Shown one piece after another: positions 19,319 through 43,300 of a stretch of 64,000 bases of DNA. The position numbers were made by a program, and so were the translations under genes. The notes under the pieces were generated by a model. The model saw only the letters and a list, made by a program, of their open reading frames with translations. It was not told where the DNA came from and did not search any database. Positions within the stretch are counted from its first letter, which is position 1. Each line of letters opens with the position of its first letter. This DNA comes from a virus: IMG/VR virus record IMGVR_UViG_3300044647_001247, positions 32,001 to 96,000 of that record, one strand, 5' to 3'.

Positions 19319-19402
19319 AACTGTTTATAAAATGTGCATAAAATATGTTAGAGTTATATAATATAATCTAACTTTATGCACCATATACCAAATACTAAAA
19401 TT

Positions 19403-20719
19403 ATGTCTTTAATTAATCAGGTGTATGGTTCTCTCAGATGGAAAAAAACTGATGAGTTCTGTGCGACAAAGTTAGGTGTTTCATTACAGAAATACCAAGA
19501 AATCAAAAAACAAATCTCAGAAACAAAACAACTGCTACAAGAAGAATTAGATTCTAGTCTTATAGAGTTTGTAGGTAAAAGAATGCTAGAACTTATTGAT
19601 GACGAAGGAATTAAGAATGAGTATGTTTTAGATATGAAATACAATCTACAAGATGCTATACTTTCTGAGAAAGAAAAGGTGATAGAATTTAGAGAAAATT
19701 TAGATGACTGCACTGCTGAAATTAAAGGAATAGCTTTTGTAGAACCAAAAAGTCCTGAAGAAATAATAAGGATTTTAAAAATTGACACTACAAAATGGAA
19801 GCTTAGCTCCTATTGGAATAAGCAACATAAAGACCATTGGCTTATTTCTGCCATGGTTACTCAAAAGACTTTAGAAGAAAAAGATTTTTTAAAGGAAGTG
19901 ATTGAAAACTTCCAGCCAAGTTATACACCAGTTGCAGAGGTGCATTTGAATGACACATTCGTTTTACCTACAGTGGGGGTTTTGAGTATTCAAGACCTTC
20001 ACTTTGGTAAAGAAGGTAATGATGGAGTGGCTGATGACTTTAGAGAAGCTATTAGTAATTTAGTATTAAAGGCTTATAAAAGTCATAAACTTGATAAAAT
20101 CATTTATGTATTTGGTGGTGATCTTTTAAACATGGATAGTTTTCATGGATCTACTACAAAGGGTACACCTGTAGATAATGATTTAAGAGCACAAGATGCT
20201 TATAAAATAGCATTTGATTCATTATACTGGAGTGTAAACTTTGTAAAACAATTTTGTAATAATCTCCATGTAGTGTATCTACCTGGTAATCATGATAGAC
20301 TTAGTAGCTATCATATGGCTCATGCTCTTTCCAAATGTTTTAATACAGCTTCTAATATCATATTTGATGTTGAATATGCTGAAAGAAAAGTTATTACTTA
20401 CGGTGATAACTTTTTTGCTTTTGAGCATGGTGATATTAGCTCAAAAAATACTCCTTTAGTATATGCAACAGAATTTCCAAAACAGTGGGGTGCAACAAAT
20501 TATAGAACTTGTTACACCGGTCACTGGCACCATAAGAAAACAACTCAGTATATATCTGAAAATGAAATACACGGATTTGCCATTAAACATCTTCCTTCTC
20601 TCTCTAAACCTGACTACTGGCATTACCATAACAAATATACAGGTGCTAAACGCCAAGCTATTATTGAAATCCATGATCAGAGGAAAGGTAAAATATCTGA
20701 GTTTGTATATACAGCGTAA
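19403..20719 (+). CDS. Calcineurin-like metallophosphoesterase with N-terminal HTH-like region (alternative start 19376)
   Basis: All five motifs present: DLHFG, GGDLLNMD, PGNHD, EHGD, GHWHH. Confidence 0.85.
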   Translation: MSLINQVYGSLRWKKTDEFCATKLGVSLQKYQEIKKQISETKQLLQEELDSSLIEFVGKRMLELIDDEGIKNEYVLDMKYNLQDAILSEKEKVIEFRENLDDCTAEIKGIAFVEPKSPEEIIRILKIDTTKWKLSSYWNKQHKDHWLISAMVTQKTLEEKDFLKEVIENFQPSYTPVAEVHLNDTFVLPTVGVLSIQDLHFGKEGNDGVADDFREAISNLVLKAYKSHKLDKIIYVFGGDLLNMDSFHGSTTKGTPVDNDLRAQDAYKIAFDSLYWSVNFVKQFCNNLHVVYLPGNHDRLSSYHMAHALSKCFNTASNIIFDVEYAERKVITYGDNFFAFEHGDISSKNTPLVYATEFPKQWGATNYRTCYTGHWHHKKTTQYISENEIHGFAIKHLPSLSKPDYWHYHNKYTGAKRQAIIEIHDQRKGKISEFVYTA

Positions 20720-22045: not shown

Positions 22046-22908
22046 AAACAGAACTTTCATATAAAACATTTGATGAACTTCTTAGTGAGGTGGCAACAGA
22101 CTTTGCCACTTATAACAATGAGGGGATGATTGAACCAGGTCAACTTATCAAGGTGGCTCAAAGAGTTAGTTATGATTTGGGTCTTAGAATACATGGTACA
22201 AAAGAAAAAGTTTTAGAGGTAACAAATAAAAAAACAAAGCTTCCTGATGATTTTTATGTTTTAAACTATGCTTATTTATGTGGTAAGTATAGTGTTACAA
22301 ATGCTGTCCTATCAGGAAGACAAACAGAAGATGTTATTTTAAATAGTTCTTATTGTTCTAAATGTGGAGAGCCCGATCCTACATGCACTTGTGAAAAAAC
22401 ATACACTATTGAATGTAACACAGGAGAGAAGATATTTGTACAGGTGGTTGAAAAAAGAAAATATGAAACCAGGGTGTATGATAGTTTTACACCTATCAGC
22501 ATTGCAACATCTACTGGAAGAATAGATGCTCTAGATGATTCTAAACCAGCTGGTTATATTAAGAACAAGTTTATATACACTAATATAGAAGAGGGAAGTT
22601 TGTTTATATCTTATGAAGGTGCTCTAGAAGATGAACATGGAAACTTGTTAGTATTAGATCACCCTATGATTAATGAATATTATGAATATGCTTTTAAGCA
22701 AAGGATTCTTGAAAATCTATACATTAATGGAGAAGATGTAATGCAAAAAATGCAACTTATAGAACAGCGTCTTAGAGCTGCTCGTAATAATGCTTTAACA
22801 ATAGTGAACACTCCAAATTTTTCAGAAATGAAGAAATTATGGGAAACAAACCGTAAAGCTCAATATGGACGATATTATAATATGTTCAAATCAGGAGAAA
22901 GCTGGTAA
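22042..22908 (+). CDS. Tail ring / tubular protein
   Basis: ATGA overlap with previous gene; KLPDDFYVL and ISYEGALEDEHGNLLVLDHP motifs; Cys-rich insert CSKCGEPDPTCTC. Confidence 0.7.
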   Translation: MKTELSYKTFDELLSEVATDFATYNNEGMIEPGQLIKVAQRVSYDLGLRIHGTKEKVLEVTNKKTKLPDDFYVLNYAYLCGKYSVTNAVLSGRQTEDVILNSSYCSKCGEPDPTCTCEKTYTIECNTGEKIFVQVVEKRKYETRVYDSFTPISIATSTGRIDALDDSKPAGYIKNKFIYTNIEEGSLFISYEGALEDEHGNLLVLDHPMINEYYEYAFKQRILENLYINGEDVMQKMQLIEQRLRAARNNALTIVNTPNFSEMKKLWETNRKAQYGRYYNMFKSGESW

Positions 22909-23275
22909 CACCTTCAGACGTTGCAGCACAACTATACAGTTTACAACTTATGGATGTAAGCTTGTTATTGCTGTAGTGGATAGTGTTAAAAAAGAGGTGG
23001 AGAAATTATATAAAAAATACAAGATTGATGAGGAATTTGATGATGATGCAGAAGGGGCATTAGTAATGCCTGATATGAAAACTTATTATTTACTTCTAGG
23101 AAAGGCGTTCATCACTCATAACACTATAGCTCATGAAGTGTTTCATGCATCTGTAAGAATTACAGAACATCGTGGAATAACTGATGAAGAAACTCAAGCT
23201 TGGATGGCAGGGCACATTACAGAGATATTATATAAGTTTTTAGAAAAAAAGAAGTTAGAAGTAAAACATGGCTGA
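22865..23275 (+). CDS. Small zincin-like metallopeptidase (start uncertain)
   Basis: TIAHEVFHA (HExxH) followed by DEETQAW (candidate third-ligand Glu). Confidence 0.7.
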   Translation: MDDIIICSNQEKAGNTFRRCSTTIQFTTYGCKLVIAVVDSVKKEVEKLYKKYKIDEEFDDDAEGALVMPDMKTYYLLLGKAFITHNTIAHEVFHASVRITEHRGITDEETQAWMAGHITEILYKFLEKKKLEVKHG

Positions 23276-26200
23276 GCAACAACAAAATCCTGGAGTGATC
23301 ACTAACACCTTTAGTAATGGTATGGTGAAAGACTACAATGAAACATTTGTAGGAGAAGGATTATATACTCATGCTCGCAATGTTGTAAGTAATTCACATG
23401 ATGGTCAGCTTGGTGTAAAAGGTAATGAGCCAGCTAACTTAAGTTGCATCACTCTTCCTTATAGCTTAATAGGATGTATTCATCTTTCTGATGATCAATG
23501 GTCTGTATATACAACAGATGATACTAATTCTGAGATAGGAATATTTGATGAAAGTCAATGCACTTATACAAAGGTGGTAAATGATCCATGTTTAGGATTT
23601 AAAAGATCTAACTTAATTACAGGTGCTTCACGTAAACGTTATGATTGCGATAGACCTGTTTATTGGGTTGATGCACTGAATCCAGATAGATTTATGGATC
23701 TTAGTAATCCCCCTTTTAAATATATAGAAACTATAGTTGATGGTTGTAAAGTAAAAACTATAACACAACCTTTACAGCTTGATTGTGAAAAGATAAGACT
23801 TGCATCTTTAATACAACATCCTTGTTTAATCTTAAATAAAGGAAAAGTTGCAGGAACTTTACCTAATGGTTCTTATCAAGTTGCTATAGCTTACACTGAA
23901 GATGGTGTTAGATTAACCGGGTATATTGGAATATCAGAAGTACAATCATTATTTACACATGAAAATGTTAGTTCTTCTTTAGAACTATCAATTACTACTA
24001 TAGATACAACATTTGACGAATTTGAGTTAGTTGTAATTGGTCGTATTAATGGTACAACAGTAGTTAAAAAAATAGGAAACTACTCAACCTCACAAGGTAA
24101 AATATACATTGACAGGTGGGATCAAGAGTTTGAAACAGTGCCAATTAGTCAAGTGGTATTTAGAGGAGACTCTTCTGAAAAAAGTGATGCTATATACGAA
24201 GTGAATAATTATTTATTAAAAATTGGAGACTATTCAAAGTTTAAATTTAATTATCAAAAACAAGCTAATAATATAAATGTTAGTTGGACAGCTGTTCAAT
24301 ATCCTTCTAATTATTATTTTAAAGGTGGAAATAATACTGGTTATTTAAGAGATGAACAATATTCATTTTTTATAAGATGGGTATACAACACTGGTGAACG
24401 TTCTGAGTCCTATCATATACCTGGAAGAGATGCTCTAGCTAGTGATAGAACTTTAGTAATGGGAGATGATGCTTTTGAAACATCTGGTATAGATTCTATT
24501 ACAAGAGAAAGATGGCAGGTGTATAATACAGCCACTTTAGATAATCTAAATAGTTACACTCTTTCTGATGGAGGGCTTGTTATAGCATCAGGTAAAATGG
24601 GATTTTGGGAAAGCACTGAAAAATATCCAGATAACACTCCTGATATTTGGGGAACATTATGTGGAAAAAACATTAGACATCATAAGATGCCTGATGAAAC
24701 TACAGCTCCATCCTTAAATTTATTTTCAAATAATGGTAAATTTATTAATATTCTTGGAGTTAACTTTAGTAATATAACTCATCCTTTAGACAACCAAGGT
24801 AATCCTATACAGTCAATTGTAGGATATGAATTATTAAGAGGATCTAGAGAAGGTAATAAATCTATTATTGGAAAAGGACTGCTTAATAATATGAGGGAAT
24901 ATTCTATTCCTAATCAAACAACTAAAGGGCTTTTTCAAAATTATCCATACAATGATTTAAGACCAGATCCTTATTTAACAGATTCTCCTAATTTAGATGG
25001 TCAATCTGCATTAAAAGGACAAGCTAATGTTTCCACTTCAAAAATGAGTGGCTATAAAAAGAATATATTTTCATTTCATAGTCCTGATGTAACTTTTTCC
25101 AATCCTTTTTTAAATGCCAATGAACTAACTATTTATCAGGAAGTGTATGGTGAATCTAATGGTAGATTTGTTAATTCTTGGAAACATCCTAAATTTAAAG
25201 TTTTAAGTAATTTTAGTTCAGTTTTCGGAGATGTAGCTTCTATAATAAGCACAGTTCAAACAGCTCTTGGAGCACTTGGAGGAGGTCTTGATTTAAAAAT
25301 TGAAGCTGATAAAGATGCTCCTGTATCAACAGGACTAACTTTAAATCCAAACTATGCTGGAGATACAGTTACTGTTTTTGGTTCAGGTGCCTCACCTTTA
25401 ACTATTGCACAGTTTATTGCAGCAGGTGTTGCAAATGGACTTTTAATAGGTGCGTTGATAGGAACAGGTATTCTACCAGCAATGTATAAACAACAGTATT
25501 TAAGACTTTTTATATATTTAATTCCTAAAAAACAATACTCAGCTCAATATAATTCACATGGTGTTTATGATGGAGGAGCCATACCAAAAAAAATAGGTAA
25601 TAAAAGAAGAAAGATTAAAGAAGCATTATATATAGGAAGTGGAAATAGCCAGTTTAATTCTGACTATTTTGTTAATAACACAGCTAGAAGTAATGTAGTT
25701 GTTTTAGAAACTGAAAAAGATTTGGATGATCCAACCACTACAGACAATAGTAGAGTGACATTAGGTGAAGCAAATAGTAATTTATATCAAAATATTAAAA
25801 CAACTATATCAAGTCACTATGGTGCTTTAAAAATTAGCATACCTTCTCAATATGGTCAATTAGGTGGAATAAAACAATTTCCTATAAATGGAGGTTGTAT
25901 TTTTAACACTACACCTGATAAGACTAAAAAGTTTAATACATCTTCTCCACTTTTTAACGGAGACACTTATATAAATAAATTTACTGAAAAAAACACAATG
26001 TTCTTTTTCACTGATTGGATGATTGGTGAGCCTGATAGAACTGAATGGGATTACACTTTATATATGTATATTCCCTATCCAAGATTTTGGATAAATAATG
26101 TAGAAGAAAATGTAGCTTTTTTAGAAGCAGCTGATAATTATAGATCATTAGATAAAAGAACATCTGGTTTCTTACATGTAAGTTCTGGATATTTTTATTT

Positions 26201-27866
26201 ATTTAATTCTGGTGTTAGAGAGTTTTTTGTTGAAAGTGAGGTTAATTTAGCATATAGAGATTGGGAAGAAGATCCATCTAAGCGTCATTATGATTCTGAT
26301 AGATACACTGATCTTGATAGTATGTTTAGAAGTGACATTATAAAAAGTGGAAACTTTTATAAATATGATTATAACTTAAGTGTATCTAAATTATTTAATT
26401 CTCATATTACTTGGGGAAATATATTAGGTCTTGATTATGATCCTACCACTGCAGAAAAATGTTACGTATATAGACCTAGTAGAGTTAGATATTCTCTTCC
26501 TCAATTTCAAGAATCAAAAAAAGATAACTGGAGAATATATTTAACTAACAATTATAAAGATTTTGACTCTCCTGTAACATCTATAAAATCTGTAAATAAA
26601 ACAGGTGCTTTGTTTATGATGTCAAGACAGAGTCCTATGCAGTTTATGGGTGTAGAAGAACTGAAGCTAGATGGAACGGGTGCTAAAATTACAATAGGTG
26701 ATGGGGGGCTTTTTAATCAACCTTTACAACAAATTGTAAATACCGAAAGTTCTTTTGAGTATGGTTCTTGCCAAAGTAAGTATTGTTCTATTAATACAAT
26801 ACACGGTGTTTTTTGGGTGAGTCAAAATCAGGGAAAGATATTTCAGTATGCTGGACAAATAAAAGAGATATCTAAAAATGGTCTTAAGTGGTGGTTTGCT
26901 AGATATTTACCTAGTGAACTATTAGCAGCGTATCCCACCTATCCTTATTTTGATAACCCGGTAATTGGTGTAGGGGTACAAATAATGTATGACAATACTA
27001 ATGAGATTGTATATATTACTAAGAAAGACTATAAACCACTAAAAACCAATTTGTTATTTGACTCAAAAGGTTTTTATGAAATAAGTTCATCTAATGGTAA
27101 GGTGTACATTCCTTTAACTAACACTAGTTATTTTGAAGATGCTAGCTGGACTATATCATATGATCCAAACGGGAATGATGGTAAAGGTGCTTGGGTTAGT
27201 TTTCATGACTGGATACCTAGCTTTTTAATTCCTGGGAAAGCTCATTTTATGAGTGTCAATCAAAATTCTATATGGAAGCATAATGTAAGATGTGATAAGT
27301 TCTGTAATTTTTATGGTGTAGATTATCCTTTTGAAATTGAGTTTATATCATCTACGGGTCAGCAAGTTGTTTCTATGAGAAACGTAGAGTATATATTAGA
27401 AGCTTATAAAATTCACAATGAATGCAGAGATGAGTTCCATGTATTAGATGCAAACTTTGATCAGGCTATTATATATAATTCAGAACAAGTATCTGGACTT
27501 TTAGAACTAGAACTTAAGAATAAAACCAACCCGGTGGCAATGCTTAGTTATCCTCAGATAAGAGCACAATCTATAGGAATAAACTATTCTAAAGAAGAGC
27601 AAAAGATTAGATTTAATCAATTTTGGGATATAACAAAAGAAAGAGGAGAGTTTGCCCCAAATACAAACATTCCAATGTTTATTACAGAGGCTAATGGATA
27701 TAAGTTTAAAATCAATCCAGCTTATGTAAACTATCAAAAGTCACCATTAGAGCGTAAGAAGTTTCGTCACAATTTAAATAAAGTGTTCTTAAGAAAGTTT
27801 AAAAGTGATGATGTAAAGATGTTATTTAAAATATCTAATCAGAAAATACAACTTAGTCAAAGGTAA
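23268..27866 (+). CDS. Tail muzzle / stabilization protein (P22 gp10-like) of crAss-like phages
   Basis: 1532 aa with NTFSNGMVKD, YLRDEQYSFFIRW, GDTYINKF and SWTISY...WVSFHDW motifs; synteny after ring genes. Confidence 0.8.
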   Translation: MAEQQQNPGVITNTFSNGMVKDYNETFVGEGLYTHARNVVSNSHDGQLGVKGNEPANLSCITLPYSLIGCIHLSDDQWSVYTTDDTNSEIGIFDESQCTYTKVVNDPCLGFKRSNLITGASRKRYDCDRPVYWVDALNPDRFMDLSNPPFKYIETIVDGCKVKTITQPLQLDCEKIRLASLIQHPCLILNKGKVAGTLPNGSYQVAIAYTEDGVRLTGYIGISEVQSLFTHENVSSSLELSITTIDTTFDEFELVVIGRINGTTVVKKIGNYSTSQGKIYIDRWDQEFETVPISQVVFRGDSSEKSDAIYEVNNYLLKIGDYSKFKFNYQKQANNINVSWTAVQYPSNYYFKGGNNTGYLRDEQYSFFIRWVYNTGERSESYHIPGRDALASDRTLVMGDDAFETSGIDSITRERWQVYNTATLDNLNSYTLSDGGLVIASGKMGFWESTEKYPDNTPDIWGTLCGKNIRHHKMPDETTAPSLNLFSNNGKFINILGVNFSNITHPLDNQGNPIQSIVGYELLRGSREGNKSIIGKGLLNNMREYSIPNQTTKGLFQNYPYNDLRPDPYLTDSPNLDGQSALKGQANVSTSKMSGYKKNIFSFHSPDVTFSNPFLNANELTIYQEVYGESNGRFVNSWKHPKFKVLSNFSSVFGDVASIISTVQTALGALGGGLDLKIEADKDAPVSTGLTLNPNYAGDTVTVFGSGASPLTIAQFIAAGVANGLLIGALIGTGILPAMYKQQYLRLFIYLIPKKQYSAQYNSHGVYDGGAIPKKIGNKRRKIKEALYIGSGNSQFNSDYFVNNTARSNVVVLETEKDLDDPTTTDNSRVTLGEANSNLYQNIKTTISSHYGALKISIPSQYGQLGGIKQFPINGGCIFNTTPDKTKKFNTSSPLFNGDTYINKFTEKNTMFFFTDWMIGEPDRTEWDYTLYMYIPYPRFWINNVEENVAFLEAADNYRSLDKRTSGFLHVSSGYFYLFNSGVREFFVESEVNLAYRDWEEDPSKRHYDSDRYTDLDSMFRSDIIKSGNFYKYDYNLSVSKLFNSHITWGNILGLDYDPTTAEKCYVYRPSRVRYSLPQFQESKKDNWRIYLTNNYKDFDSPVTSIKSVNKTGALFMMSRQSPMQFMGVEELKLDGTGAKITIGDGGLFNQPLQQIVNTESSFEYGSCQSKYCSINTIHGVFWVSQNQGKIFQYAGQIKEISKNGLKWWFARYLPSELLAAYPTYPYFDNPVIGVGVQIMYDNTNEIVYITKKDYKPLKTNLLFDSKGFYEISSSNGKVYIPLTNTSYFEDASWTISYDPNGNDGKGAWVSFHDWIPSFLIPGKAHFMSVNQNSIWKHNVRCDKFCNFYGVDYPFEIEFISSTGQQVVSMRNVEYILEAYKIHNECRDEFHVLDANFDQAIIYNSEQVSGLLELELKNKTNPVAMLSYPQIRAQSIGINYSKEEQKIRFNQFWDITKERGEFAPNTNIPMFITEANGYKFKINPAYVNYQKSPLERKKFRHNLNKVFLRKFKSDDVKMLFKISNQKIQLSQR

Positions 27867-30811
27867 TGAAACGGACAGATTCTATATTACAGCAGTTTTA
27901 TATGTCTAGGCTTCCTAAAGCTCAGATGGGACTAGCCATATCTGATGGTACAAGGGTGGCACCAAGACCAAAAGCTTTAACTGAAGCTGAATATCAAGAA
28001 AATGAACGTGCTAGAAAAATAACAAAAGAAGGCACTGAAAGACGAAATAAGCAAATTTTAGAAGAAAGACAAAAAGCAAGAAATACAAAAGGTACATTTA
28101 AGGAAAAGAACTTTAACATAGGTGAGAAGTTTAGAATGTTTCCTGGTAGTGTAGGTGGTGCAGGAGAACTCTTTGATGACTATATCAATCCTTTAAAGTT
28201 TGTTGGAGACATGGCTTCAAATCTAGGTAATTCTAGAACACCCCAAGAAGCAGCTCTAAATGTAGCAATGACAGCAGGACTTGGTGCTCTTGGATTTGAC
28301 CCATTAGGTAGTGGATTAAAATCTTCAGCTTTTAAAGAAGCACGTGCATCTTTTCCAAAATTTATAGATGAAGTTTCATATTCTATAAATAAACCTAAGT
28401 CTGTAGAACAAATAACTAATAAGAATTTATATAAAGAATTAGGATCTCCTTTGAATATTTCAGAAGGATTAAATAATCAAGGTGTATTTAGTTTAAAAAG
28501 ATTTCCTGACCATGTTGTAAAATTTGAGCCTGTTGAAACAGTAGGTAGAGGTATTGGTTATCCTGAATATACAAATTTTGATTTTGTAAGTGCTATGAAA
28601 AATATAAAAGATAAACCTAACATAGCAAAGGTTAAAAATCAACTTAATGTAGAAAATAACAAGAGAGCTCTTATAATGAATAGGATTGATGATGGATACC
28701 GTCCTTTAGATCTTAATCCTATCAATTATAGAAAAATGCCAGATGACTCAGTTCGTAAAATGTACTATGACTTAAAAGATGTTATTAACAATGATTTAGG
28801 TTTTGATTTTATGGGTAACAACTACCTATACAATCCTAAAACAAAAGATTTTTCATTATTTGATTTTTCTCCACAATTTAAAGCAGGTAATGATGGTAAT
28901 TCACAATTCTGGATTAATGATGTTTTAGGTAATACTAATAGTAATTTACTTGGTAAAGCTCAAGCTAATAAAAACTTAAAAACAGCAATTATATCTAAGC
29001 TTGTTAATGATCATAGAGTGGCTGGACAAAATTTATTTAAAGAGATTGGTACAGGATATACATTACGAAGTCATGCTGATATTTCAAAACTTCTTGATAA
29101 AGGTGATAAGTTTGCTTTTCAAAAATTTAATAATGCACTTAAAGATGTTGATATATATCAGCAAGGTGGTGTAATAAAAGATGACAGAGGACAATGGGCA
29201 CATCCAGGTAAAGTAACTCGTATATCTAGTCCTAATATAACTATGAAGGGTGTACCCTATCCTGTACTAGGTGTAGGTTCTAATGGTGAAGAACAAATGA
29301 TGTATCCAGGACAAGAATATAATTTTGGTGGTGCATCTTATGTAGATGAATATCCTATGATGAAAAATGGTGGAGAAATGATTAAACGTAAAGATGGTAG
29401 TTATTCTAAAAGAGGACTCTGGGATAACATTAGAGCTAATAAAGGCTCAGGTAAAAAACCTAGTAAAGAAATGCTAGAACAAGAACGTAAAATAAAATCT
29501 AAAGAAATGAAATACGGAGGAACAAATAACTCAGGCTTTGAAGCTTTACCAGAATATGTACAAGCTAAAATATTAGCTAACATGGGATATGGTGGATATT
29601 ATAATCCAATGATGGAAGAAGGTGGTGAACCTAATGGTGGCATGGCACTAGGTCAGATAATGGCTGTTTCAGATAAGATGAATAAGCTTCGTCAGTTTAT
29701 ATCTCCTGATAAAAACTTAGATCCATGGATTGCTTCTAAGCTTGCAGTTATGGATGATAGTGCAGATGCTATTGCTAATTATATGATGTACAATCCTGAA
29801 GCTCAGGGTGATGAAGAAGAAATCTCACAAATGAGTAGAGGAGGATATGTTGTAAGTAGAAGTAGTGCACGTAAGGGTAAGACACATAAAGTGACAGGTC
29901 CTGATGGAACTGTTAAATACTTTGGTGATTCTAAGTTAGGACAGCATCCTGATGATCCTGAAAGAAAAAAAGCATTCTATGCTCGTCATAAAAAGAATTT
30001 AGATTCTAATCCATATTTTAGAGCCTTTGCTAAAGAAACATGGCAGCAGGGTGGACAACCTGGTTTATCATTTTGGAATGCTAGTAAAACTCCACAAGGT
30101 GCTGTTACACCTACAGGAATGTCAAATTATTTTAATGATAATAAACAAGGTTTTGATCAAGCAAATTTTACTAAAAAGATGCAGGAGTTAAATCTTGATA
30201 CATCAAGTAATGTATCATTACAACAAGATATGATGAAAAAATATCCTGATCTTGTAAATCAAGTGATGTCTGAATATGGTGATACAAATGCAGGTAGATT
30301 TGATGATGGTATTATAGGAGCTAGAGTTATTAATGCTGCTAGTAAAATTCCTACTCAAACTAAACAAGTTCCTCCTCAAATACAACAATCAATGGCACCT
30401 CCTCCTGCTACATATAAAAATCCAAATGCAGGATATGTAGTTAATGTAAGAGGAGATGATAATGACGGAGCTTATTATTTTCCTAGCTCTGAAAACTTTG
30501 ACAAACTTAGTTCAGCAATACCTGGTGGTAAAGAATACAGAGATGGTTATAAAGGAGCAACAGTTAATATGACTAATGCAAACTTTATGAAACAATACGG
30601 AAACAACTACAAAGAAGCACTAGGTCAAGCATACAAACGTAATCCACAAAATCCTGAGCAGTATATTCCAATGCAAAGAAATGGAGGATCTACTTGGTCT
30701 GGTAATAACTGGTATCAAAATGGAGGTTTAGTAAATGGTGCAGAAATGGAAGTGACACCTGAACAAGCTGAGATGTTACGTCAACAAGGTTATGAATTTG
30801 AAATAATTTAA
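27866..30811 (+). CDS. Internal virion (cargo) polyprotein with kinase-like domain and small modules
   Basis: TAATG-coupled to muzzle gene; no Cys seen; nine xxGG motifs; kinase-like motifs VVK, DFMGNN, LFDFS. Confidence 0.7.
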   Translation: MKRTDSILQQFYMSRLPKAQMGLAISDGTRVAPRPKALTEAEYQENERARKITKEGTERRNKQILEERQKARNTKGTFKEKNFNIGEKFRMFPGSVGGAGELFDDYINPLKFVGDMASNLGNSRTPQEAALNVAMTAGLGALGFDPLGSGLKSSAFKEARASFPKFIDEVSYSINKPKSVEQITNKNLYKELGSPLNISEGLNNQGVFSLKRFPDHVVKFEPVETVGRGIGYPEYTNFDFVSAMKNIKDKPNIAKVKNQLNVENNKRALIMNRIDDGYRPLDLNPINYRKMPDDSVRKMYYDLKDVINNDLGFDFMGNNYLYNPKTKDFSLFDFSPQFKAGNDGNSQFWINDVLGNTNSNLLGKAQANKNLKTAIISKLVNDHRVAGQNLFKEIGTGYTLRSHADISKLLDKGDKFAFQKFNNALKDVDIYQQGGVIKDDRGQWAHPGKVTRISSPNITMKGVPYPVLGVGSNGEEQMMYPGQEYNFGGASYVDEYPMMKNGGEMIKRKDGSYSKRGLWDNIRANKGSGKKPSKEMLEQERKIKSKEMKYGGTNNSGFEALPEYVQAKILANMGYGGYYNPMMEEGGEPNGGMALGQIMAVSDKMNKLRQFISPDKNLDPWIASKLAVMDDSADAIANYMMYNPEAQGDEEEISQMSRGGYVVSRSSARKGKTHKVTGPDGTVKYFGDSKLGQHPDDPERKKAFYARHKKNLDSNPYFRAFAKETWQQGGQPGLSFWNASKTPQGAVTPTGMSNYFNDNKQGFDQANFTKKMQELNLDTSSNVSLQQDMMKKYPDLVNQVMSEYGDTNAGRFDDGIIGARVINAASKIPTQTKQVPPQIQQSMAPPPATYKNPNAGYVVNVRGDDNDGAYYFPSSENFDKLSSAIPGGKEYRDGYKGATVNMTNANFMKQYGNNYKEALGQAYKRNPQNPEQYIPMQRNGGSTWSGNNWYQNGGLVNGAEMEVTPEQAEMLRQQGYEFEII

Positions 30812-30815
30812 TATT

Positions 30816-33800
30816 ATGAAAATACGCATTACAAAAAAAGGATTGCCTAAAGCACAATGGCAAAATAGTCAAATACCAGGAGGTCAAGCTATTAATCCAA
30901 GAAAAGTAGCAGGAAAGGAAAACTTGACCTCTTGGAATGTTTTTGATAATGCACCACAGCAAGGTGTTCCTACACAATTTATTGATCCTCAATCAGTTGT
31001 AAACACAGAACGTAATGTTTGGAATTATAGTCCCTATCGTAATAGTCAAGGTGAAAGTATAACAGGTGATGAGTATTATAATCAATTTTGGACTCCTCCT
31101 AACACTCCTGCAAAAACTGCTCCTAATATAAATAAAAAATCTACTTATAAAAAAACAAATAACTTTAATGATTATTTTGCTGCAGGAGCAATGACATTAA
31201 ATGCTTTAGATAATAGACAAACTGATAAGGAGTTGGAAGCTTCTTGGCGGAATGGTCTTATTAGTCCTGGTATTATTGATTATTCTCAAAACAGAGGAGA
31301 TTATGAAATGAACACTGGTATGGTAGACCCTTATAATACAGGAGCAAAAAACAAAGGACAATTTACTAATTCTTTTTATACTTCACAGTTTCAAGAAGGT
31401 GGTATATTTACACTAAATGAGGTGCAACAAGCTATATTACCTAATATGTTATCGGTAGCTTATGAAAGAAACACACCTGCATCAACATATGTTAATCCAC
31501 CTAATAATTCATTAAAAATAGATTACACAGATGCTGCTGATTTTATTAAATCACAGGAAGGATTTATACCAAAAGCAAAATGGGACTATGCTCAATATAG
31601 TGTAGGATATGGCACAAAAGCTAAAAATAAGAATGAAGTTATTTCTAAAGAAGAAGCTGAAAATAGATTAAAATTAGAACTTGCTCCTGTAATGGAAAAA
31701 ATACAGAGCAAGCTTAAAGTTCCTATTAATTCAGGTCAACTTATAGCTCTTGCTTCTATAAATTATAATACAGGTTCTTTAGCAAATAAATTAATTGATA
31801 GAATTAATAAGGGTGAAAGTCCTGACATTATAGCAAATACTATTAAAAGCATGGCATTAACTGGTGTGGGTAGTAATAAAATATTACCGGGATTAGTTAA
31901 ACGTAGGAATGAAGAAGCTGGCTTATTTTTACGTGGTTATGAAAATGGTGGTGAAAATACAGAAATTATGAAAATACGTATTACAAATTCTCCTGAGAAA
32001 ATGGAGTATGGTGGTCAATCTAATTATGCATTAGATCTTGGAAGAAAGAATATGTACACTGATATGCCTACTTCTCCATATGAAAGTGTAAGTAAAACAA
32101 TTCAGGAAGTTCCTGAAGAGTTTGCTACAATAGAAGCAGAAAAAGGAGAAACTATTCTTACTGATGTAGATGGTGATGGTATCAGAGAACATATGAATAT
32201 TGAAGGTAAATATCATGAATATGGTGGTACTAATCTTGCAGCTAATCCTGGTGATTTTGTTTTTTCTAATCATAAACCAAAGATGGCAATCAAAGATCCA
32301 ACTGTTTTAAAACTATTTGATAAGAAGTTTAAGAAAGGTGGTTACACTCCTGCTGAAATAGCAAAGCAGTATGACTTAAATAAATACAAAGCAGTGTTAG
32401 AAAATAAAGATGCTGATAAGTATGATAAAAATACAGCAGAATTAATGTCTAATAATATTAATAAAAAGTTAGGTATGTTGTCTTTTGTACAAGAAGCTAT
32501 AAAAGGTTTTCCACAAGGAATACCTGAAGTGGCTAAGTCAACAATGGGTCAAAATAATCAAGTTGCATATGGTGGGTATATTCCTGAAATGGCTTATGGT
32601 GGTTATCTGGAACAATATCAAGATAAGGGGCAAGTTACTCCTTCTTGGCTTAAACCATGGTTAAAATCTAATACACAAAAAGGTAGAACAAGTCCCACTG
32701 GAAAAATGACAACTTATAATCCAGATGTAGATAATATATACAAAGAGCTTGACTATTGGCAGAAAAGAGCAGGAAGAAATTTTAAGAGTGCTGATGATAT
32801 GCAATCTTTTATATATTCTTCAATAGAAAAGGAAGATCCTTCTATAATAGAAGATATGTGGAAGAAGTGGGGGAACACAGCAAAAAGTAAAAACACTGAT
32901 CTAGCTAATTTTGCTGATAATACAATAGGAGCAAGAACTGCTGATTTACTAAATACTTATAGAACAAAAAGAGGGCAACCTGTTTCTATACCTAGAAATG
33001 TTAAATCTAATTTTAATCTTCCTCCTTTAAATACAAATTCTATAGATTTGCCATTAACTGTTCCTAATCCATTTACACCACCTTCAGATAAAGTTCCTGA
33101 TTTTAATGAATCAAAAGGTAATACTCCTTATGGTTGGACAAATCCTGATAAAAGAAATTTAGCTAATGCTCTTATAAATAGAAGCTATATTAAAAAATAT
33201 CCTAGTGTAAGGTCAGATGTTAATCCTGCTATGTCTGATTTTAGAAATATGGATTGGAGAGGAAAGGCAGCGGAGCTTCAAGGAACTTATAATAGCCAAC
33301 TTAATACATTAGGTAATTTTCAGTCACCCACCTCTTTAGCTGCAAATATGTCCTTTATGGCAGGACAGCAGGGTGAAAATTTAGTTAATCGTGCTATAGA
33401 ACCTACAGAACAACAAAATGTAAATATTTATAATCAAGTGGCTGGACAGAATGCAAACATTATGAATAACGCATTAGCTAATGCTGCACAAAATAAGTTC
33501 TTACGTTCTGGAGAGAGAGCAGTAGTAAATCAGAGGTATAATCAAGAAATGATTGATTTTAACAATGCATATACACAAGCACGAAATCAAGGAGAGAATA
33601 ATGCTGCTGGTATATATAATACTAATGTAACAGAAAGTCCTTATTATTATATAGATCCTGCTACACAAAGAATGAAGTTTAATTCTGATAATGCACGTGC
33701 TGCTTTTGAAGCAGCTAGAAGAAGTGCTGGCCCGTCTGATAATGATGTAGTAGCTAAGTATCTTCAAATACGTAGTTCTTTAACAGGTGTTCCTGATGAT

Positions 33801-33953
33801 GAAAAGGATGATGTAACAAGAGCTATAATGGGTCTTGATAAATCAGCTAGAGGTAGAATGTCTCAGACAACATTTCCTTTTGATCAAATACGAAATAGAA
33901 CTACAGTACAACAACCTGTTACAGGTAATTATTCACAAAATCCTAACGGATAA
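30816..33953 (+). CDS. Internal virion (cargo) protein with GH24 lysozyme domain
   Basis: FIKSQEG...WDYAQYSVGYGT...QLIALASINYNTG...LPGLVKRRNEEAGLF at 31530-31932; IEAEKGE...HEYGG module. Confidence 0.8.
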   Translation: MKIRITKKGLPKAQWQNSQIPGGQAINPRKVAGKENLTSWNVFDNAPQQGVPTQFIDPQSVVNTERNVWNYSPYRNSQGESITGDEYYNQFWTPPNTPAKTAPNINKKSTYKKTNNFNDYFAAGAMTLNALDNRQTDKELEASWRNGLISPGIIDYSQNRGDYEMNTGMVDPYNTGAKNKGQFTNSFYTSQFQEGGIFTLNEVQQAILPNMLSVAYERNTPASTYVNPPNNSLKIDYTDAADFIKSQEGFIPKAKWDYAQYSVGYGTKAKNKNEVISKEEAENRLKLELAPVMEKIQSKLKVPINSGQLIALASINYNTGSLANKLIDRINKGESPDIIANTIKSMALTGVGSNKILPGLVKRRNEEAGLFLRGYENGGENTEIMKIRITNSPEKMEYGGQSNYALDLGRKNMYTDMPTSPYESVSKTIQEVPEEFATIEAEKGETILTDVDGDGIREHMNIEGKYHEYGGTNLAANPGDFVFSNHKPKMAIKDPTVLKLFDKKFKKGGYTPAEIAKQYDLNKYKAVLENKDADKYDKNTAELMSNNINKKLGMLSFVQEAIKGFPQGIPEVAKSTMGQNNQVAYGGYIPEMAYGGYLEQYQDKGQVTPSWLKPWLKSNTQKGRTSPTGKMTTYNPDVDNIYKELDYWQKRAGRNFKSADDMQSFIYSSIEKEDPSIIEDMWKKWGNTAKSKNTDLANFADNTIGARTADLLNTYRTKRGQPVSIPRNVKSNFNLPPLNTNSIDLPLTVPNPFTPPSDKVPDFNESKGNTPYGWTNPDKRNLANALINRSYIKKYPSVRSDVNPAMSDFRNMDWRGKAAELQGTYNSQLNTLGNFQSPTSLAANMSFMAGQQGENLVNRAIEPTEQQNVNIYNQVAGQNANIMNNALANAAQNKFLRSGERAVVNQRYNQEMIDFNNAYTQARNQGENNAAGIYNTNVTESPYYYIDPATQRMKFNSDNARAAFEAARRSAGPSDNDVVAKYLQIRSSLTGVPDDEKDDVTRAIMGLDKSARGRMSQTTFPFDQIRNRTTVQQPVTGNYSQNPNG

Positions 33954-40345: not shown

Positions 40346-43300
40346 ATGAATAAGTGTAGTATAAGTATACAGATTTTTGCCAATTTTACTAAGCAACTGT
40401 TAGCTCAAGATGCTAAGTATAAAAACTTTGCTGAAGTTGCAACGTTTATTATCAAGCGTCCTGGACAACCTGATAGTGTAAAGATGGTTGCTCTTAAAGG
40501 ACTTGCTAAGATATATGATCAGCTGGCTAAAAAAGACCAGACCTTTAGCTTTTCTGCAGATGACAGCAAAATCATTGATGTAGATTTGGAAAAAGATGAT
40601 TTAGAAACACAGTTTAAAAACATTGCTGCTAACTACCAAGTACGTCCTTCAGCTCCTCTTTCTATAGATACTATCAAGAATGATATAAAAAATCTTTCTT
40701 CTCTTCCAGTTTTGCAATTGCAGGACGCTGTTACTAAAATCGTAAAAGACATAGCTGCTCTTGCCAAAACTAATTTTCGTAAGAGTGCAGACGACATGGT
40801 TAAAATCATTGGTGAGCTTTATGATAGAGCTATTACTGAGCTAGATAAAAATACAGCAGTGAGTCCTATTATTCGGAACTCACTTACACAGCTTCTTAAT
40901 ACCGAAAAGAATATTGCTACAGAAGCTGCCAGTGATTATATTCCTTTAAAGAATACAATATACGGGGATACTAAAATCATAGTCAAGAAAGACGGTGGAA
41001 TATTTGAAGTTTTAAGAGACACTACTGGAAAATATATTGACATTAATTCATCAGATAGTTCAGAAGTAATATTTGATAGATCTGTTGGAGATCAGTTATT
41101 TAATCTTAGAGTGGACAGTTCACCTTTTGTAGGTGGTAACGATGGCACTCAATATATATTTTCTCACAATGAGTTGAGAAATGGTATGACCTTACGTGAT
41201 CGTACCGGGAAAGTTATAACTAACCAATTGCTTAGTTTTGATAATCCACTTTCTGCTCTTGAAGTGGTAGCTTCCCGTACAGAAATACAACGTAACCAAG
41301 ACCGCATTAGTAGAATTCGTTCAGAAATACCTACACGTACTCTTGAAACACAAGAGGTAGTCTCACAACAAAAAGCTTTGCTAGCAGGTAATCCTGTGCT
41401 TAGTGTATTTTCTCCTTTAGAAGGTGCACAAATACAGTTTCGTATTCCAGGGCAGCAAGGAGCTATGATATTATATGGTATAGATAACTATGCTATTATC
41501 TATCCTGATAATCGTACAGTGGCTGTAGACTTTTCTGAGACTCAGAAACAACTTATTTTAAAGCTTGCCCGCAAGAATACTACTAATGAAAATGGAATAA
41601 ATGTAACAGAACCTATTACAGAAGAAGACTTTTATAATCTGAAAGCCAGTTATGAAAAATTTAAAGATTTTAAGAAAGCTGTACAAGAAATCCTTGATCA
41701 AAATAAAAACCAATCTGAAATTATTTTACCACAAGCTTTAGTTACTGCTTATATTAATCTTGCCCGTACTGGTGAAGCTATTGCTGTTGCACCCAGTGCA
41801 GATCAACAAGCTAGTCTAACTACATTGTTAAACAAAGAAGGAGGTCCTGGACAGATTAGTTTTAATGTAGTAGAAGCTTTAGATGATAATTCTTATTCTG
41901 AACCACGTCGTGTTACTAAACCTATTATAGTAGCTAAACAAGGTGGTGTTTGGACATTTATATCAGACCTTAAGGGTAATGAGATGGTTGCTGTTGATCG
42001 TGATGATAGAAAAGAATATATGTCTTTTTCTGATTATATGCAAAATGAACTTAAAATATCTCCAGATATTAACATACAAAAGTTTCCAAGTTCTTTTGCA
42101 TGGCTTTATCAGAAACCTAATGGTAAATTACAACCTATTGCTCTTAAGTATATACCAGTAGAAAATAGTGCAGATATTGCACGACTTGCTATGGGGTTTG
42201 GTCAGTTACTAAAAAAAATGAGTGATCCTCAAACAGAAGGACCAAAAGAACTCAGAAACTTTAACTTGAACGTCTTTGGTTTTTCTCCCTATAATCCAAC
42301 AGGTGCTACAAGTTTTGCAGGTGACTTTGACGTATTTAAAGATCCAAGTGGTGAACGCAGTGTGTCTATTCAGATTCGTCCTATGACTATGAACTGGAGC
42401 CAAGTACCTCGGGATGTAAGAAAGGCTTTAACTGTATATATAGATGTTCCTGTTATGACTGCTTTTTTAAAAGTGGTACGTATAGCTGCAGAAATACCTG
42501 CATTTAAATCACAGAAAAATGACCTTAATACAGCGGCTGGTAAAAATGCTTTGGTAAAATTTATAGATGAAGATCCCCAGCTTCGTAAACAACTTATGAG
42601 TGCTTATGAAGATATTAATACACACCTCTATCGTAAGTTTCAGTCTATAGGTGAAAAACTTACTAAGACTTCTTATAATGGCGAGTTTGATATACCTAAG
42701 ATTTACACACTGATGGAAAATGAAAAAAGTGATCTTAGTGGAAGATGGAAGCTTAAAATAAAAGATCGTCAAACTGGTAATGATGTAACTAACTTTAACA
42801 ACTATCGTAGCATGACTACGGAAGAAGTGTTTACATTTGGTGGTATTCAGGCTGTGTTTGCAGGACCAAACGTTTCTGCTATACAGACAGTTAATAAACC
42901 AGCTCCAGTAACACAAAATCCTGCTAACAACACTACAGCAGATAATGTTCCTGGTACTGCTGGAACTATAGAGATAGATCTTAATTTTGAAGATGGTGCT
43001 TTTGAACTTGCTATGGATACTGAACTTTTCCAAGCATATCAAGCAGGGCAGTTTCAGCAAGAACTAGATTGGATTAAAGCAAATCTACCAAAAGAAATCA
43101 GCGTAGAAGACCTAGCTGATATTATGGATAATCTTAAAGCTGAAGGTCGTGTACTTGGTTATTTTAGAGACCGAGTTATCTATCTCAATGAACAGCTTTC
43201 TGGTAGAGGATCAGGATATCATGAAGCATTCCATGGTGTGTTTAGAAAACTAATGGATGCTTCTACTCGTGATCGTTACTTAAAACTTACCAAAGAAAAA

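Follow-up and report, generated by a model that had tools for sequence, protein, structure and literature searches.

A Met/aromatic-x-x-Gly-Gly seam peptide marks module borders in putative cargo proteins of an uncultured crAss-like phage

Crassviruses are among the most abundant phages known and load megadaltons of protein cargo, which is threaded through the tail. In the locus described here, two large ORFs just downstream of the muzzle gene are punctuated by a short peptide ending in Gly-Gly, which may be a site of cleavage, a joint, or a handle. The pattern is real and widespread, and apparently undescribed; we favor, at a probability of roughly one half, the reading that these seams are uncut joints or docking handles rather than protease sites. 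Coordinates refer to the window, the whole 64,000-nt stretch that was analyzed (positions 32,001-96,000 of IMG/VR record IMGVR_UViG_3300044647_001247), which belongs to a 110-kb contig (84% complete) of an uncultured crAss-like phage.

Like the crAss001 genome, the contig encodes a crAss-type major capsid protein (PF23898 Crass_capsid, E = 3.6e-31, above the cut-off) and a tail ring protein (PF24228 CrAss_Ring_1, E = 4.2e-13), the latter upstream of the cargo genes. The 1532-aa ORF that follows matches the csAssE-Sib 'Muzzle protein' by tblastn with 96% coverage, as well as virion structural proteins of phi4:1/phi17:2, and its PHROG assignment is virion structural protein (E = 2.7e-63). The genes are laid out as follows.

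23268..27866, + strand: muzzle-protein homologue, 1532 aa, directly 5' of the motif-bearing ORFs
27866..30811, + strand: cargo-slot ORF 1 (P0001), 981 aa
30816..33953, + strand: cargo-slot ORF 2 (P0002), 1045 aa
34010..40337, + strand: two more slot proteins, 1000 and 1103 aa, without the motif and kept in relatives
40346-51850: virion-polymerase-like ORF, 3834 aa

P0001 and P0002 occupy the slot just 3' of the muzzle gene that in crAss001 holds the genes of cargo proteins C1 (gp45) and C2 (gp46), after the muzzle and before the virion RNA-polymerase genes. The same order (ring protein, muzzle, one to four motif-rich ORFs, conserved 1000- and 1103-aa proteins) was found in 81 loci. Because the two genes fill the post-muzzle slot of a crAss-like virion module, we infer, from position only, that their products are cargo/ejection proteins, putatively packaged in the virion and injected.

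In the seam, Met, Tyr, Phe, or Trp is followed by two variable residues and then Gly-Gly (strict form, [MYFW]xxGG). An earlier note, made from the letters alone, had described two polyproteins punctuated by a hydrophobic-x-x-G-G motif; both ORFs exist as described, all 14 motifs that it listed are where it placed them, and the strict form is indeed concentrated there, being ∼11 times denser than in the rest of the contig. The strict form occurs 14 times in the 2026 aa of the two ORFs versus 21 times in the 32,696 aa of the rest of the contig (density ratio, 10.8; Fisher p = 3.7e-9), and M..GG occurs 7 versus 3 times (p = 2e-7). Two motifs, YNFGG (29318) and FKKGG (32328), were not on that list. 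None of 5000 composition-preserving shuffles attained the 9 motifs of ORF 1, and three attained the 5 of ORF 2; of the GG dipeptides, 9 of 13 in ORF 1 (p = 9e-6) and 5 of 8 in ORF 2 (p = 1e-3; binomial tests) have M/Y/F/W at −3. Across 120 homologues, this position is Met in 31%, Tyr in 17%, Phe in 9%, and Trp in 5.5% of cases, with Met enriched 6.6-fold and Leu, Ile, and Val depleted 3- to 5-fold, and the seam glycines rank among the most conserved residues. Glycine codon usage at the seam is near background; therefore, selection acts on the protein. In loci with this slot synteny, 1080 of 1361 motifs fall within 26% of the ORF residues; the muzzle homologue has a single strict motif, and the capsid protein has only two (residues 222 and 300), neither of them N-terminal. 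ORF 1 is fairly Gly-rich (9.7% Gly), as would suit the view that the motif reflects chance or the composition of Gly-rich, low-complexity proteins; this reading, rejected by the shuffle, Fisher, and binomial tests and by position-by-position conservation of the motif in hundreds of homologues, is already refuted, and we leave it almost no probability.

P0001 consists, in order, of an LPKAQ leader, a Gly/Ala-rich hydrophobic segment, a kinase-like domain, small modules joined by seams, and a conserved C-terminal tail.

27866..27934, + strand: N-terminal leader ending LPKAQMG (LPKAQ at 27911-27925, residues 16-20)
28250..28297, + strand: Gly/Ala-rich hydrophobic segment, residues 129-144
28412..29140, + strand: kinase-like domain, residues ∼183-425, stopping just short of the first motif
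29156..29170, + strand: seam YQQGG; pLDDT < 50, HSP starts cluster at 430-434
29171..29359, + strand: beta module m10, residues 436-498; six strands in AlphaFold2, pLDDT 63-85
29318-29332, + strand: YNFGG, inside the beta-module fold
29360..29374, + strand: seam MKNGG; pLDDT dip, HSP starts at 500-502 and ends at 503-505
29375..29506, + strand: basic GLWDNIR module m7, in 38 proteins
29507..29521, + strand: seam MKYGG; both Gly at least 90% conserved, pLDDT dip
29522..29626, + strand: double seam, 25-aa helical module m0 plus 10-aa spacer; pLDDT < 50 over both motifs
29582-29596, + strand: MGYGG ending m0
29612-29626, + strand: MEEGG ending the 10-aa spacer
29627..29830, + strand: helical DPWIASKL module m2, in 104 proteins; AlphaFold2 helices
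29831..29845, + strand: seam MSRGG; second Gly invariant, first at least 90% conserved
29846..30040, + strand: basic KYFGD...RKKAFYARH module m1, 70 aa including the seam; pLDDT 74-91
30041..30055, + strand: seam WQQGG; second Gly invariant, 54 HSPs end at residues 730/731
30671..30727, + strand: MQRNGG (one residue longer) and YQNGG, before the C-terminal tail; HSP starts cluster at 932 and 950-952
30728..30808, + strand: conserved C-terminal tail, ...EMEVTPEQ..LRQQGYEFEII

LPKAQ lies near the N-terminus of both proteins, as the earlier note had it (residues 10-14 in P0002); at the leader position, relatives (∼120 homologues and slot ORFs) carry ...LQKMQKGG or ...KSQGGG. The tail is common to most of the 120 homologues listed, with 77 HSPs reaching residue 981, and residues 1-400 are covered by only one to four homologues. 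For the proposed kinase-like module, an ESM Atlas structure search with residues ∼183-425 gave ten rows, each a kinase fold or a cluster annotated as kinase (Pkinase, APH, ABC1; TM 0.48-0.57 over 179-230 aligned residues, from an Atlas model of low confidence, with a whole-protein pLDDT of 0.48), and OspG, RIO1/ABC1, and APH were the nearest named feature clusters; Pfam gave no match in this region, and we treat the predicted kinase-like fold as a lead. Because it is rare among homologues, the domain appears to be a variable add-on.

The small modules behave differently. Module m0 occurs in 103 proteins, nearly always at 25 aa (range, 25-34) and sometimes in several copies per protein; m1, 70-71 aa long, has varying neighbors in the 109 proteins that carry it; and m10 stands at the protein start in 10 relatives. 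The motif is omitted after the last module of a protein, so that where m7 is in last position the protein ends without it. A weak match to DUF5754 (E = 0.086) was obtained for m1, and some homologues carry PF19058; m0, m1, m2, m7, and m10 had no match among GenBank phages. The beta, helical, and KYFGD modules form separate, confident blocks in AlphaFold2, as their proposed independence implied, with MSRGG located at a helix end, ahead of the first strand of the next module.

P0002 is a lysozyme cassette fused to a class-C slot protein, visibly at a duplicated leader.

31389..31403, + strand: seam FQEGG, ahead of the lysozyme cassette
31548..31916, + strand: GH24-type phage lysozyme domain, residues 245-367 (PF00959, E = 8.7e-17)
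31938..31952, + strand: seam YENGG, closing the lysozyme cassette
31965..31987, + strand: in-frame copy of the gene start at 30813-30835 (22/23 nt); both copies encode MKIRIT
31968..33950, + strand: class-C part; stand-alone ORFs of 640-690 aa in relatives align colinearly with it, starting at its first residue
32001-32015, + strand: MEYGG ending the class-C leader
32328, 32562, and 32589, + strand: further class-C motifs FKKGG, VAYGG, and MAYGG

The lysozyme, recognized as such in the earlier note, spans profile positions 1-125 of 125 at 62.1 bits (cut-off, 22.3); its PHROG is endolysin, and its tblastn matches are endolysins and lysozyme domains of ejection/internal virion proteins. In the class-C alignment, M1, R4, I5, P9, M12, Y14, G15, G16, and Q17 are invariant. 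The stretch at 32133-32270 (P0002 residues 440-486) resembles gp040 of Cellulophaga phage phi4:1 (E = 5e-4).

Do the seams coincide with module borders? When ∼120 homologues are cut at the motif, the resulting modules have fixed lengths (70, 25, and ∼78 aa) and a shuffled order, and relatives gain, lose, duplicate, and reorder modules at seams. Right-hand HSP ends peak exactly on the second Gly, with 32.5% of these ends within 3 residues, versus 11% for random positions. In the AlphaFold model of P0001, 6 of 8 motifs fall in confidence dips between folded blocks, and most motifs come after a predicted helix, in stretches of low confidence. Module exchange among homologues and predicted domain boundaries thus both map to the motifs, as had been proposed. 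As to the companion idea of concatenated effectors, most motif-bounded modules are instead small conserved pieces (25-80 aa) present in >100 relatives, and the variable enzymatic domains (kinase-like and lysozyme here, YkuD and ART in homologues) are add-ons.

Such a pattern might arise if the seam were a passive linker, a helix-stop and flexible hinge kept through recombination at that point, with neither partner nor cutting: the placement of motifs after helices, the mapping of module exchange to motifs, and the duplicated leader, which indicates recombination at such junctions, would all fit. However, neither a helix cap nor a hinge needs Met enriched or Leu, Ile, and Val depleted as observed, the near-background Gly codons give no DNA-level homology signal, and extreme N-termini, which have nothing to join, also conserve the motif; we consider this reading quite unlikely.

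The reading we prefer is that the seams are left intact. Each protein is built of a leader, a seam, a module, another seam and module, and so on, then a tail; like C1 and C2 of crAss001, it would be packaged in virions and pushed out through the phage tail. Uncut seams would serve as flexible joints, allowing a chain of mini-domains to pack and to thread through the tail, and would probably also be repeated docking handles for a virion partner (portal, ring protein, or DNA); recognition rather than a plain linker is suggested by the strict choice of Met or an aromatic residue over Leu, Ile, and Val. As a secondary consequence, a shared seam would offer an in-frame junction at which new cassettes (kinase-like and lysozyme; YkuD and ART in relatives) could be spliced.

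The earlier note supposed that the proteins are cut at, or docked via, the motif. As true polyproteins, they would be cut during assembly or after injection by a phage-encoded but unrecognized enzyme or a host enzyme and would release their modules, as in adenovirus and African swine fever virus. In favor of this, the signature looks like a sharply defined site, with M/Y/F/W fixed three residues before a near-invariant GG and Leu, Ile, and Val excluded; it ends short N-terminal leaders (with M12, Y14, G15, G16, and Q17 invariant in class-C proteins), and it is missing after the last module. Clan CE cysteine proteases process virion precursors at Gly-Gly, at (M/I/L)XGG-X in adenovirus and in the polyproteins of African swine fever virus. 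The likeness lies in a hydrophobic residue at a fixed distance before Gly-Gly and in small basic modules between sites of proteins co-packed with DNA (as we suppose here); in the present phage, however, that residue lies one position farther from GG, searches for C5 and C48 peptidases found none, the cargo proteins are nearly Cys-free, and the virus lineage is different. The head of T4 carries internal proteins that are injected and whose capsid targeting sequence is cut by prohead protease gp21 at (L/I)-x-E. Head packing and injection may be shared here, as is a short N-terminal leader followed by a short conserved site; T4 differs in encoding separate small genes rather than chains and in its (L/I)-x-E site (Phi-x-x-G-G here), and no gp21-type (S77) or HK97-type (S78) protease was detected here.

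Searches of the contig (84% complete) found no match to S78, S77, C48, C39, C5, or MPTase-PolyVal (PF18818), and S78, ClpP, and C48 were all absent from five relatives (97-100% complete). The HExxH motifs near the cargo genes, and a DxDxD motif of the giant ORF, lie as follows.

22865..23275, + strand: 136-aa ORF with an invariant HExxH, directly 5' of the muzzle gene; pLDDT 85.6
43220..43234, + strand: HEAFH within the 3834-aa virion-polymerase-like ORF, the one zincin-like motif conserved in the neighborhood of the cargo genes
47795-47809: DxDxD in the 3834-aa ORF

The 136-aa ORF was largely rejected as a processing enzyme: it has no zincin fold match, is absent from four of the five complete relatives, and is not co-conserved with the motif, being missing from 11 loci where the ring-protein gene is visible 5' of the muzzle gene. 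HEAFH and a downstream AEE..AD.F are kept in two distant complete relatives, making this region of the giant protein a weak candidate protease; that it, in a co-packaged polymerase protein, or else a host enzyme, cuts the seams seems rather improbable. Several observations argue against cutting in general. Motifs are spaced ≤15 residues apart in 223 of 760 cases (29%), with many joints bearing tandem motifs 6-15 residues apart, so that cleavage would produce many peptides of 6-14 residues; cutting those homologues that begin M-Y-Y-Q-Q-G-G would remove just 7 residues; and the capsid protein has no N-terminal site. These spacings and the lack of a match to any known protease family favor uncut seams, and the proposed cleavage found no support; we regard the polyprotein reading overall as doubtful. 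It draws some strength from the leaders, whose motif-ended form resembles cleavable targeting peptides such as that of T4, and from the HExxH...E motif conserved in the co-located giant virion protein, which could be a protease.

Among the closest known counterparts is crAss001 C1: its basic N-terminal leader ends in FDTGG, and it contains a Gly/Ala-rich hydrophobic segment and 21 GG dipeptides, but only 3 strict motifs. A transmembrane helix is predicted at C1 residues 136-158 (PMC10172136); P0001 residues 129-144 resemble the segment at that helix, a resemblance only. The crAss001 structure placed only a few short pieces of C1 (PMC10172136), namely 214-245 and 425-552 (Bayfield et al. 2023, PMC10172136), which are flanked by joints of the [AF][YF]GG type (AYGG, FAEGG, AFGG, FAYGG). 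The AFGG-W bond is continuous in the cryo-EM model because the modeled segment starts at 425, which favors uncut seams, and no cleavage is reported in the crAss001 virion papers or the Crassvirales review. This joint is, however, a noncanonical match to the motif, and homology of P0001/P0002 to gp45 is not significant (BLASTP E = 0.44; hhalign E = 0.19, probability 0.3); PF25725 crAss_CARG1 had no match in the contig at E ≤ 1, and the class-C profile had no hit among PDB sequences. In phi4:1, gp040 (virion structural by MS/MS, KC821632) occupies the corresponding slot, two genes past its muzzle homologue gp042, and has 14 GG, including FQAGG, YQNGG, FQIGG, and FQSGG; it shares one short module with P0002 and is otherwise unrelated at the BLAST level.

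Modular injected proteins as such are already published as polyvalent proteins, which are large, mosaic, multidomain, encoded among late/virion genes, and proposed to be packaged and injected with DNA, and which combine effector enzymes with cell-wall hydrolases and small uncharacterized domains (PMC5512222). Processing by embedded zincins was proposed for them (Iyer, Burroughs, Anand, de Souza, and Aravind 2017, PMC5512222), a point in favor of cleavage. The proteins described here likewise join unrelated domains in one chain, show mosaic architectures among relatives, and lie among virion genes. ART-PolyVal (PF18760) is found on one homologue (P0018) and YkuD on others; PF18818 is absent from the contig, and most modules here are tiny conserved pieces rather than effectors. 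A glycine junction motif is not mentioned in that paper (no occurrence of 'glycine' or 'linker'; PMC5512222), and no description of the seam peptide was found in the literature that could be searched.

In thousands of cargo proteins from metagenomes, module borders are defined by a conserved junction peptide. It predicts where domains start and end, marks where new enzymes (kinase-like, lysozyme, L,D-transpeptidase-like, and ADP-ribosyltransferase) enter the putatively injected chain, and is a candidate ligand of the portal, the ring proteins, or DNA, as well as a candidate cleavage site. Should the seams be cut, small DNA-binding modules and enzymes would be strung into one chain that is packaged, cleaved at Phi-x-x-Gly-Gly, and injected; this would be the first polyprotein strategy in tailed phages, would span a large crAss-like clade, and would have converged on the Gly-Gly processing of adenovirus and African swine fever virus. 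If they are uncut, as we favor, the seam would represent a design rule for translocation-competent, beads-on-a-string proteins.

The Phi-x-x-Gly-Gly peptide [MYFW]xxGG, which we call a seam, is concentrated in two adjacent cargo-slot ORFs of this uncultured crAss-like phage:

27866-30811, + strand: P0001, cargo-slot ORF 1, 981 aa
30816-33953, + strand: P0002, cargo-slot ORF 2, 1045 aa

We found every motif listed in the earlier note at the coordinates given there, as well as two others, YNFGG at 29318 and FKKGG at 32328. Over the whole contig, P0001 and P0002 together (2026 residues) contain 14 motifs and the remaining 32,696 residues contain 21, confirming the enrichment over the rest of the proteome that had been anticipated (ratio, 10.8; Fisher p = 3.7e-9); the form M..GG occurs seven times in these two proteins versus three in the rest of the contig. 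Composition-preserving shuffles matched the observed motif count in 0 of 5000 trials for P0001 and in 3 of 5000 for P0002. A metagenome protein collection yielded 658 near-length and 3151 shorter P0001 homologues (E <= 0.001), almost all of them unnamed, whereas tblastn of P0001 and of single modules against GenBank phages gave no match, and the lysozyme part was the sole source of P0002 matches there. The residue at −3 of the glycine pair in 120 homologues is Met (31%), Tyr (17%), Phe (9%), or Trp (5.5%), with Leu, Ile, and Val 3- to 5-fold depleted. At five seams the glycines are invariant or ≥90% conserved in a 50-sequence alignment, and a weaker extended pattern is visible: Pro at −2 from the hydrophobic residue, Met adjoining that residue, and Glu or Tyr after the glycines. 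At the motif, Gly codons are used at close to background frequencies, which argues against a DNA-level seam (microhomology); selection therefore acts on the peptide, not on a DNA recombination site.

The proposal that the motif brackets discrete modules held up by several approaches. BLAST high-scoring pairs (HSPs) between P0001 and its family begin and end at motifs, 54 of them stopping where WQQGG ends, at residues 730/731. When family members are split at the motif, the segments have nearly fixed lengths (109 proteins contain the 70- to 71-aa segment, 103 the 25-aa segment, and 104 the 69- to 87-aa segment, with further segment families of 26, 30, and 31 aa), and their order, copy number, and neighbors differ between proteins: the 70-aa module is preceded by six different modules across the family, the 25-aa module is present in up to three copies per protein, and modules are also found at protein starts or ends. 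When all pairs within the family are compared, the second Gly is the exact peak for internal right-hand homology breakpoints, with 32.5% lying within 3 residues compared to 11% for random positions, and left-hand breakpoints peak just ahead of the hydrophobic residue; because the family sequences are related, these breakpoints are not independent events. Module gain and loss in homologues thus map to the motifs, as the HSP ends and shuffled segments also indicate. In an AlphaFold2 model of P0001 residues 425 to 740 (mean pLDDT, 64), the confident blocks correspond to the modules, and predicted domain boundaries coincide with the motif in six of eight cases, where it lies in low-confidence dips between blocks; the exceptions are YNFGG, within the beta module, and MSRGG, at a helix end. 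Since proteins in which the GLWDNIR module is last end without a motif, the motif belongs to the junction rather than to the module.

As for the modules themselves, the identity of the P0002 lysozyme domain is certain. P0001 residues 183 to 425 (28412-29140, + strand) look kinase-like in structure comparisons: each of the 10 ESM Atlas rows is a cluster with a kinase fold or a kinase annotation (TM, 0.48 to 0.57), and OspG (an effector kinase), RIO1/ABC1, and APH are the closest feature clusters that have names. Very few relatives carry this domain. Models carried by homologues include YkuD, ART-PolyVal, DUF5872, DUF5754, and DUF3597; the conserved core of the family is made up of zinc ribbons and of small modules, helical or beta and in many cases basic. 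We found no PDB relatives of the core modules: searching PDB with the fold of the module string gave nothing under E = 0.1. Single modules gave only weak Pfam matches to DUF5754 (E = 0.086) and DUF7210. Some family proteins have CxxC...CxxC zinc ribbons as between-seam modules (for example, P0023 residues 466 to 506 and P0011 residues 36 to 50), and a CYxCGG seam variant exists; these hold the only cysteines of otherwise Cys-poor proteins.

Slot ORFs could be sorted into classes by their ends. The first has a leader of the MNKLLQHI...LPGLQKMQKGG type; the second starts with MANKPNNP... or MYYQQGG... and ends with ...QGYxFEI[IM]; the third starts with MKTYKVRIKKSPESMAYGGQ or MKIRITKKGLPKAQ. From these leaders, the LPKAQ seen near both N termini in the earlier note is therefore a leader-end variant of the same junction. 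The C-terminal tail of P0001 (...EMEVTPEQ..LRQQGYEFEII; 30728-30808, + strand) is common to most of the 120 homologues listed, regardless of the upstream part, and could serve as a terminal tag for docking or incorporation.

From residue 385, P0002 is colinear with class-C proteins, the stand-alone 640- to 690-aa slot ORFs of relatives, starting at their first residue. A 23-nt stretch with the P0002 gene start (30813-30835) is repeated in frame 1152 nt downstream (31965-31987); the copies are identical at 22 of 23 nt, and both encode MKIRIT. This repeat and the class-C colinearity argue that the lysozyme cassette, which is bracketed by FQEGG and YENGG, was spliced ahead of a second leader. In relatives the downstream part is a gene of its own, so P0002 either arose by a recent in-frame fusion or has an internal start as well. 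No other case shows cartridge-like insertion as clearly.

The window covers bases 32001-96000 of an IMG/VR virus contig (109.8 kb; 84% complete by CheckV). Genes for a large terminase, a portal, and a crAss-type major capsid protein (PF23898, E = 3.6e-31) are present on this contig; tail-fibre genes lie within the window, as do the following features:

Within the window: crAss ring protein 1 (PF24228, E = 4e-13)
22865-23275, + strand: 136-aa ORF with an HExxH motif, between the ring-protein and muzzle genes
40346-51850, + strand: 3834-aa ORF, with HEAFH at 43220-43234 (residue 959) and DxDxD at 47795-47809

P0001 and P0002 directly follow a 1532-aa ORF that aligns over 96% of its length with a csAssE-Sib protein annotated as muzzle protein, and likewise with Cellulophaga phage phi4:1 and phi17:2 virion proteins; ORFs of 1000, 1103, 3834, and 2193 aa lie 3' of P0002. 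In crAss001, cargo proteins C1 and C2 occupy the equivalent slot, followed by virion RNA-polymerase proteins (PMC10172136). Because its slot position matches theirs, the P0001/P0002 pair is probably packaged and injected. Gene contexts of relatives, drawn from IMG/VR loci only, show the ring-protein and muzzle genes followed by one to four ORFs rich in motifs and then by relatives of the 1000- and 1103-aa proteins (81 loci); 138 ORFs that make up 26% of ORF residues in the IMG/VR loci contain 1080 of the 1361 motifs. Also among the tail and ring genes is a DNA-repair-exonuclease-like gene (19376-20719, + strand; PHROG 704, E = 3e-51), an unusual placement for a nucleic-acid enzyme.

We favor, with a probability of about one-half, the reading that seams are uncut joints or docking handles. 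That a protease cuts them is less likely, and we consider it doubtful: the motif is as sharp as a cleavage site, excludes Leu, Ile, and Val, and ends short leaders, but in 223 of 760 cases consecutive motifs are ≤15 residues apart, many joints are double (for example, MGYGG, five residues, and MEEGG), and some slot proteins start with M-Y-Y-Q-Q-G-G. Nor did we find a match to the protease families searched, either in the contig (MPTase-PolyVal, C48, C39, S78, S77, and C5) or in five relatives that are 97 to 100% complete (S78, ClpP, and C48). The cartridge idea of concatenated, packaged, cut, and injected effectors is supported in part, as regards module bracketing and insertion of the lysozyme cassette at the second leader, but its cleavage step is unsupported.

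The search for an enzyme identified two HExxH motifs. HNTIAHExxHAxVRxTEDR...DEE..W..GH is invariant in the 136-aa ORF, with HExxH invariant in 20 homologues, and its AlphaFold2 model (pLDDT, 85.6) has a beta-beta-alpha-beta-beta-alpha-alpha layout. Neither Foldseek nor VIA-align matched it to a zincin (the top Z, 5.4, was to unrelated alpha/beta proteins), Pfam gave nothing, and PHROGs gave only a family of unknown function. The ORF separates the ring-protein and muzzle genes in 19 of 81 IMG/VR loci, is absent from 11 loci with a visible ring-protein gene upstream of the muzzle gene, and is absent from four of the five complete relatives, which keep motif-rich cargo. Given these absences and the lack of a zincin match, we rejected it as a dedicated processing protease. 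The second motif, HEAFH in the 3834-aa protein, is, like AEE..AD.F farther downstream, conserved in two distant relatives; no part of this protein matched Pfam or PHROG. Its sequence motifs would fit a virion RNA polymerase to which a metallopeptidase-like region is fused; that region resembles the zincin proposed by Iyer et al. to process polyvalent virion proteins (PMC5512222) and would be a weak candidate for cutting seams.

Concatenated, packaged, and injected multidomain proteins have already been published, as polyvalent proteins (PMC5512222) and crassvirus cargo (PMC10172136); in the literature searched, we found no description of a conserved Phi-x-x-Gly-Gly seam. Two further points speak against cutting. 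The crAss001 papers and a Crassvirales review report no processing. Cryo-EM resolved crAss001 C1 (gp45, 90.8 kDa) segments 214 to 245 in the tail barrel and 425 to 552 on the portal (PMC10172136), and these are flanked by AYGG, FAEGG, AFGG, and FAYGG. Because the modelled segment begins at residue 425, the chain is uncut through AFGG-W, a joint that is, however, not a strict motif match. Homology of the P0001/P0002 family to C1 is not significant, the Pfam model of the crAss001 cargo protein 1 family (PF25725) matched nothing in the contig at E <= 1, and the class-C part was likewise rejected as a gp45 homologue for lack of significant similarity. Phage phi4:1 has been cultured, and its virion proteome is known. 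In its equivalent slot, gp040 (895 aa; 28653-31340 of that record) has four [FY]QxGG motifs (FQAGG, YQNGG, FQIGG, and FQSGG) and one module in common with P0002 (E = 5e-4). The phi4:1 gp040 protein is a practical system for asking whether seams are cut.
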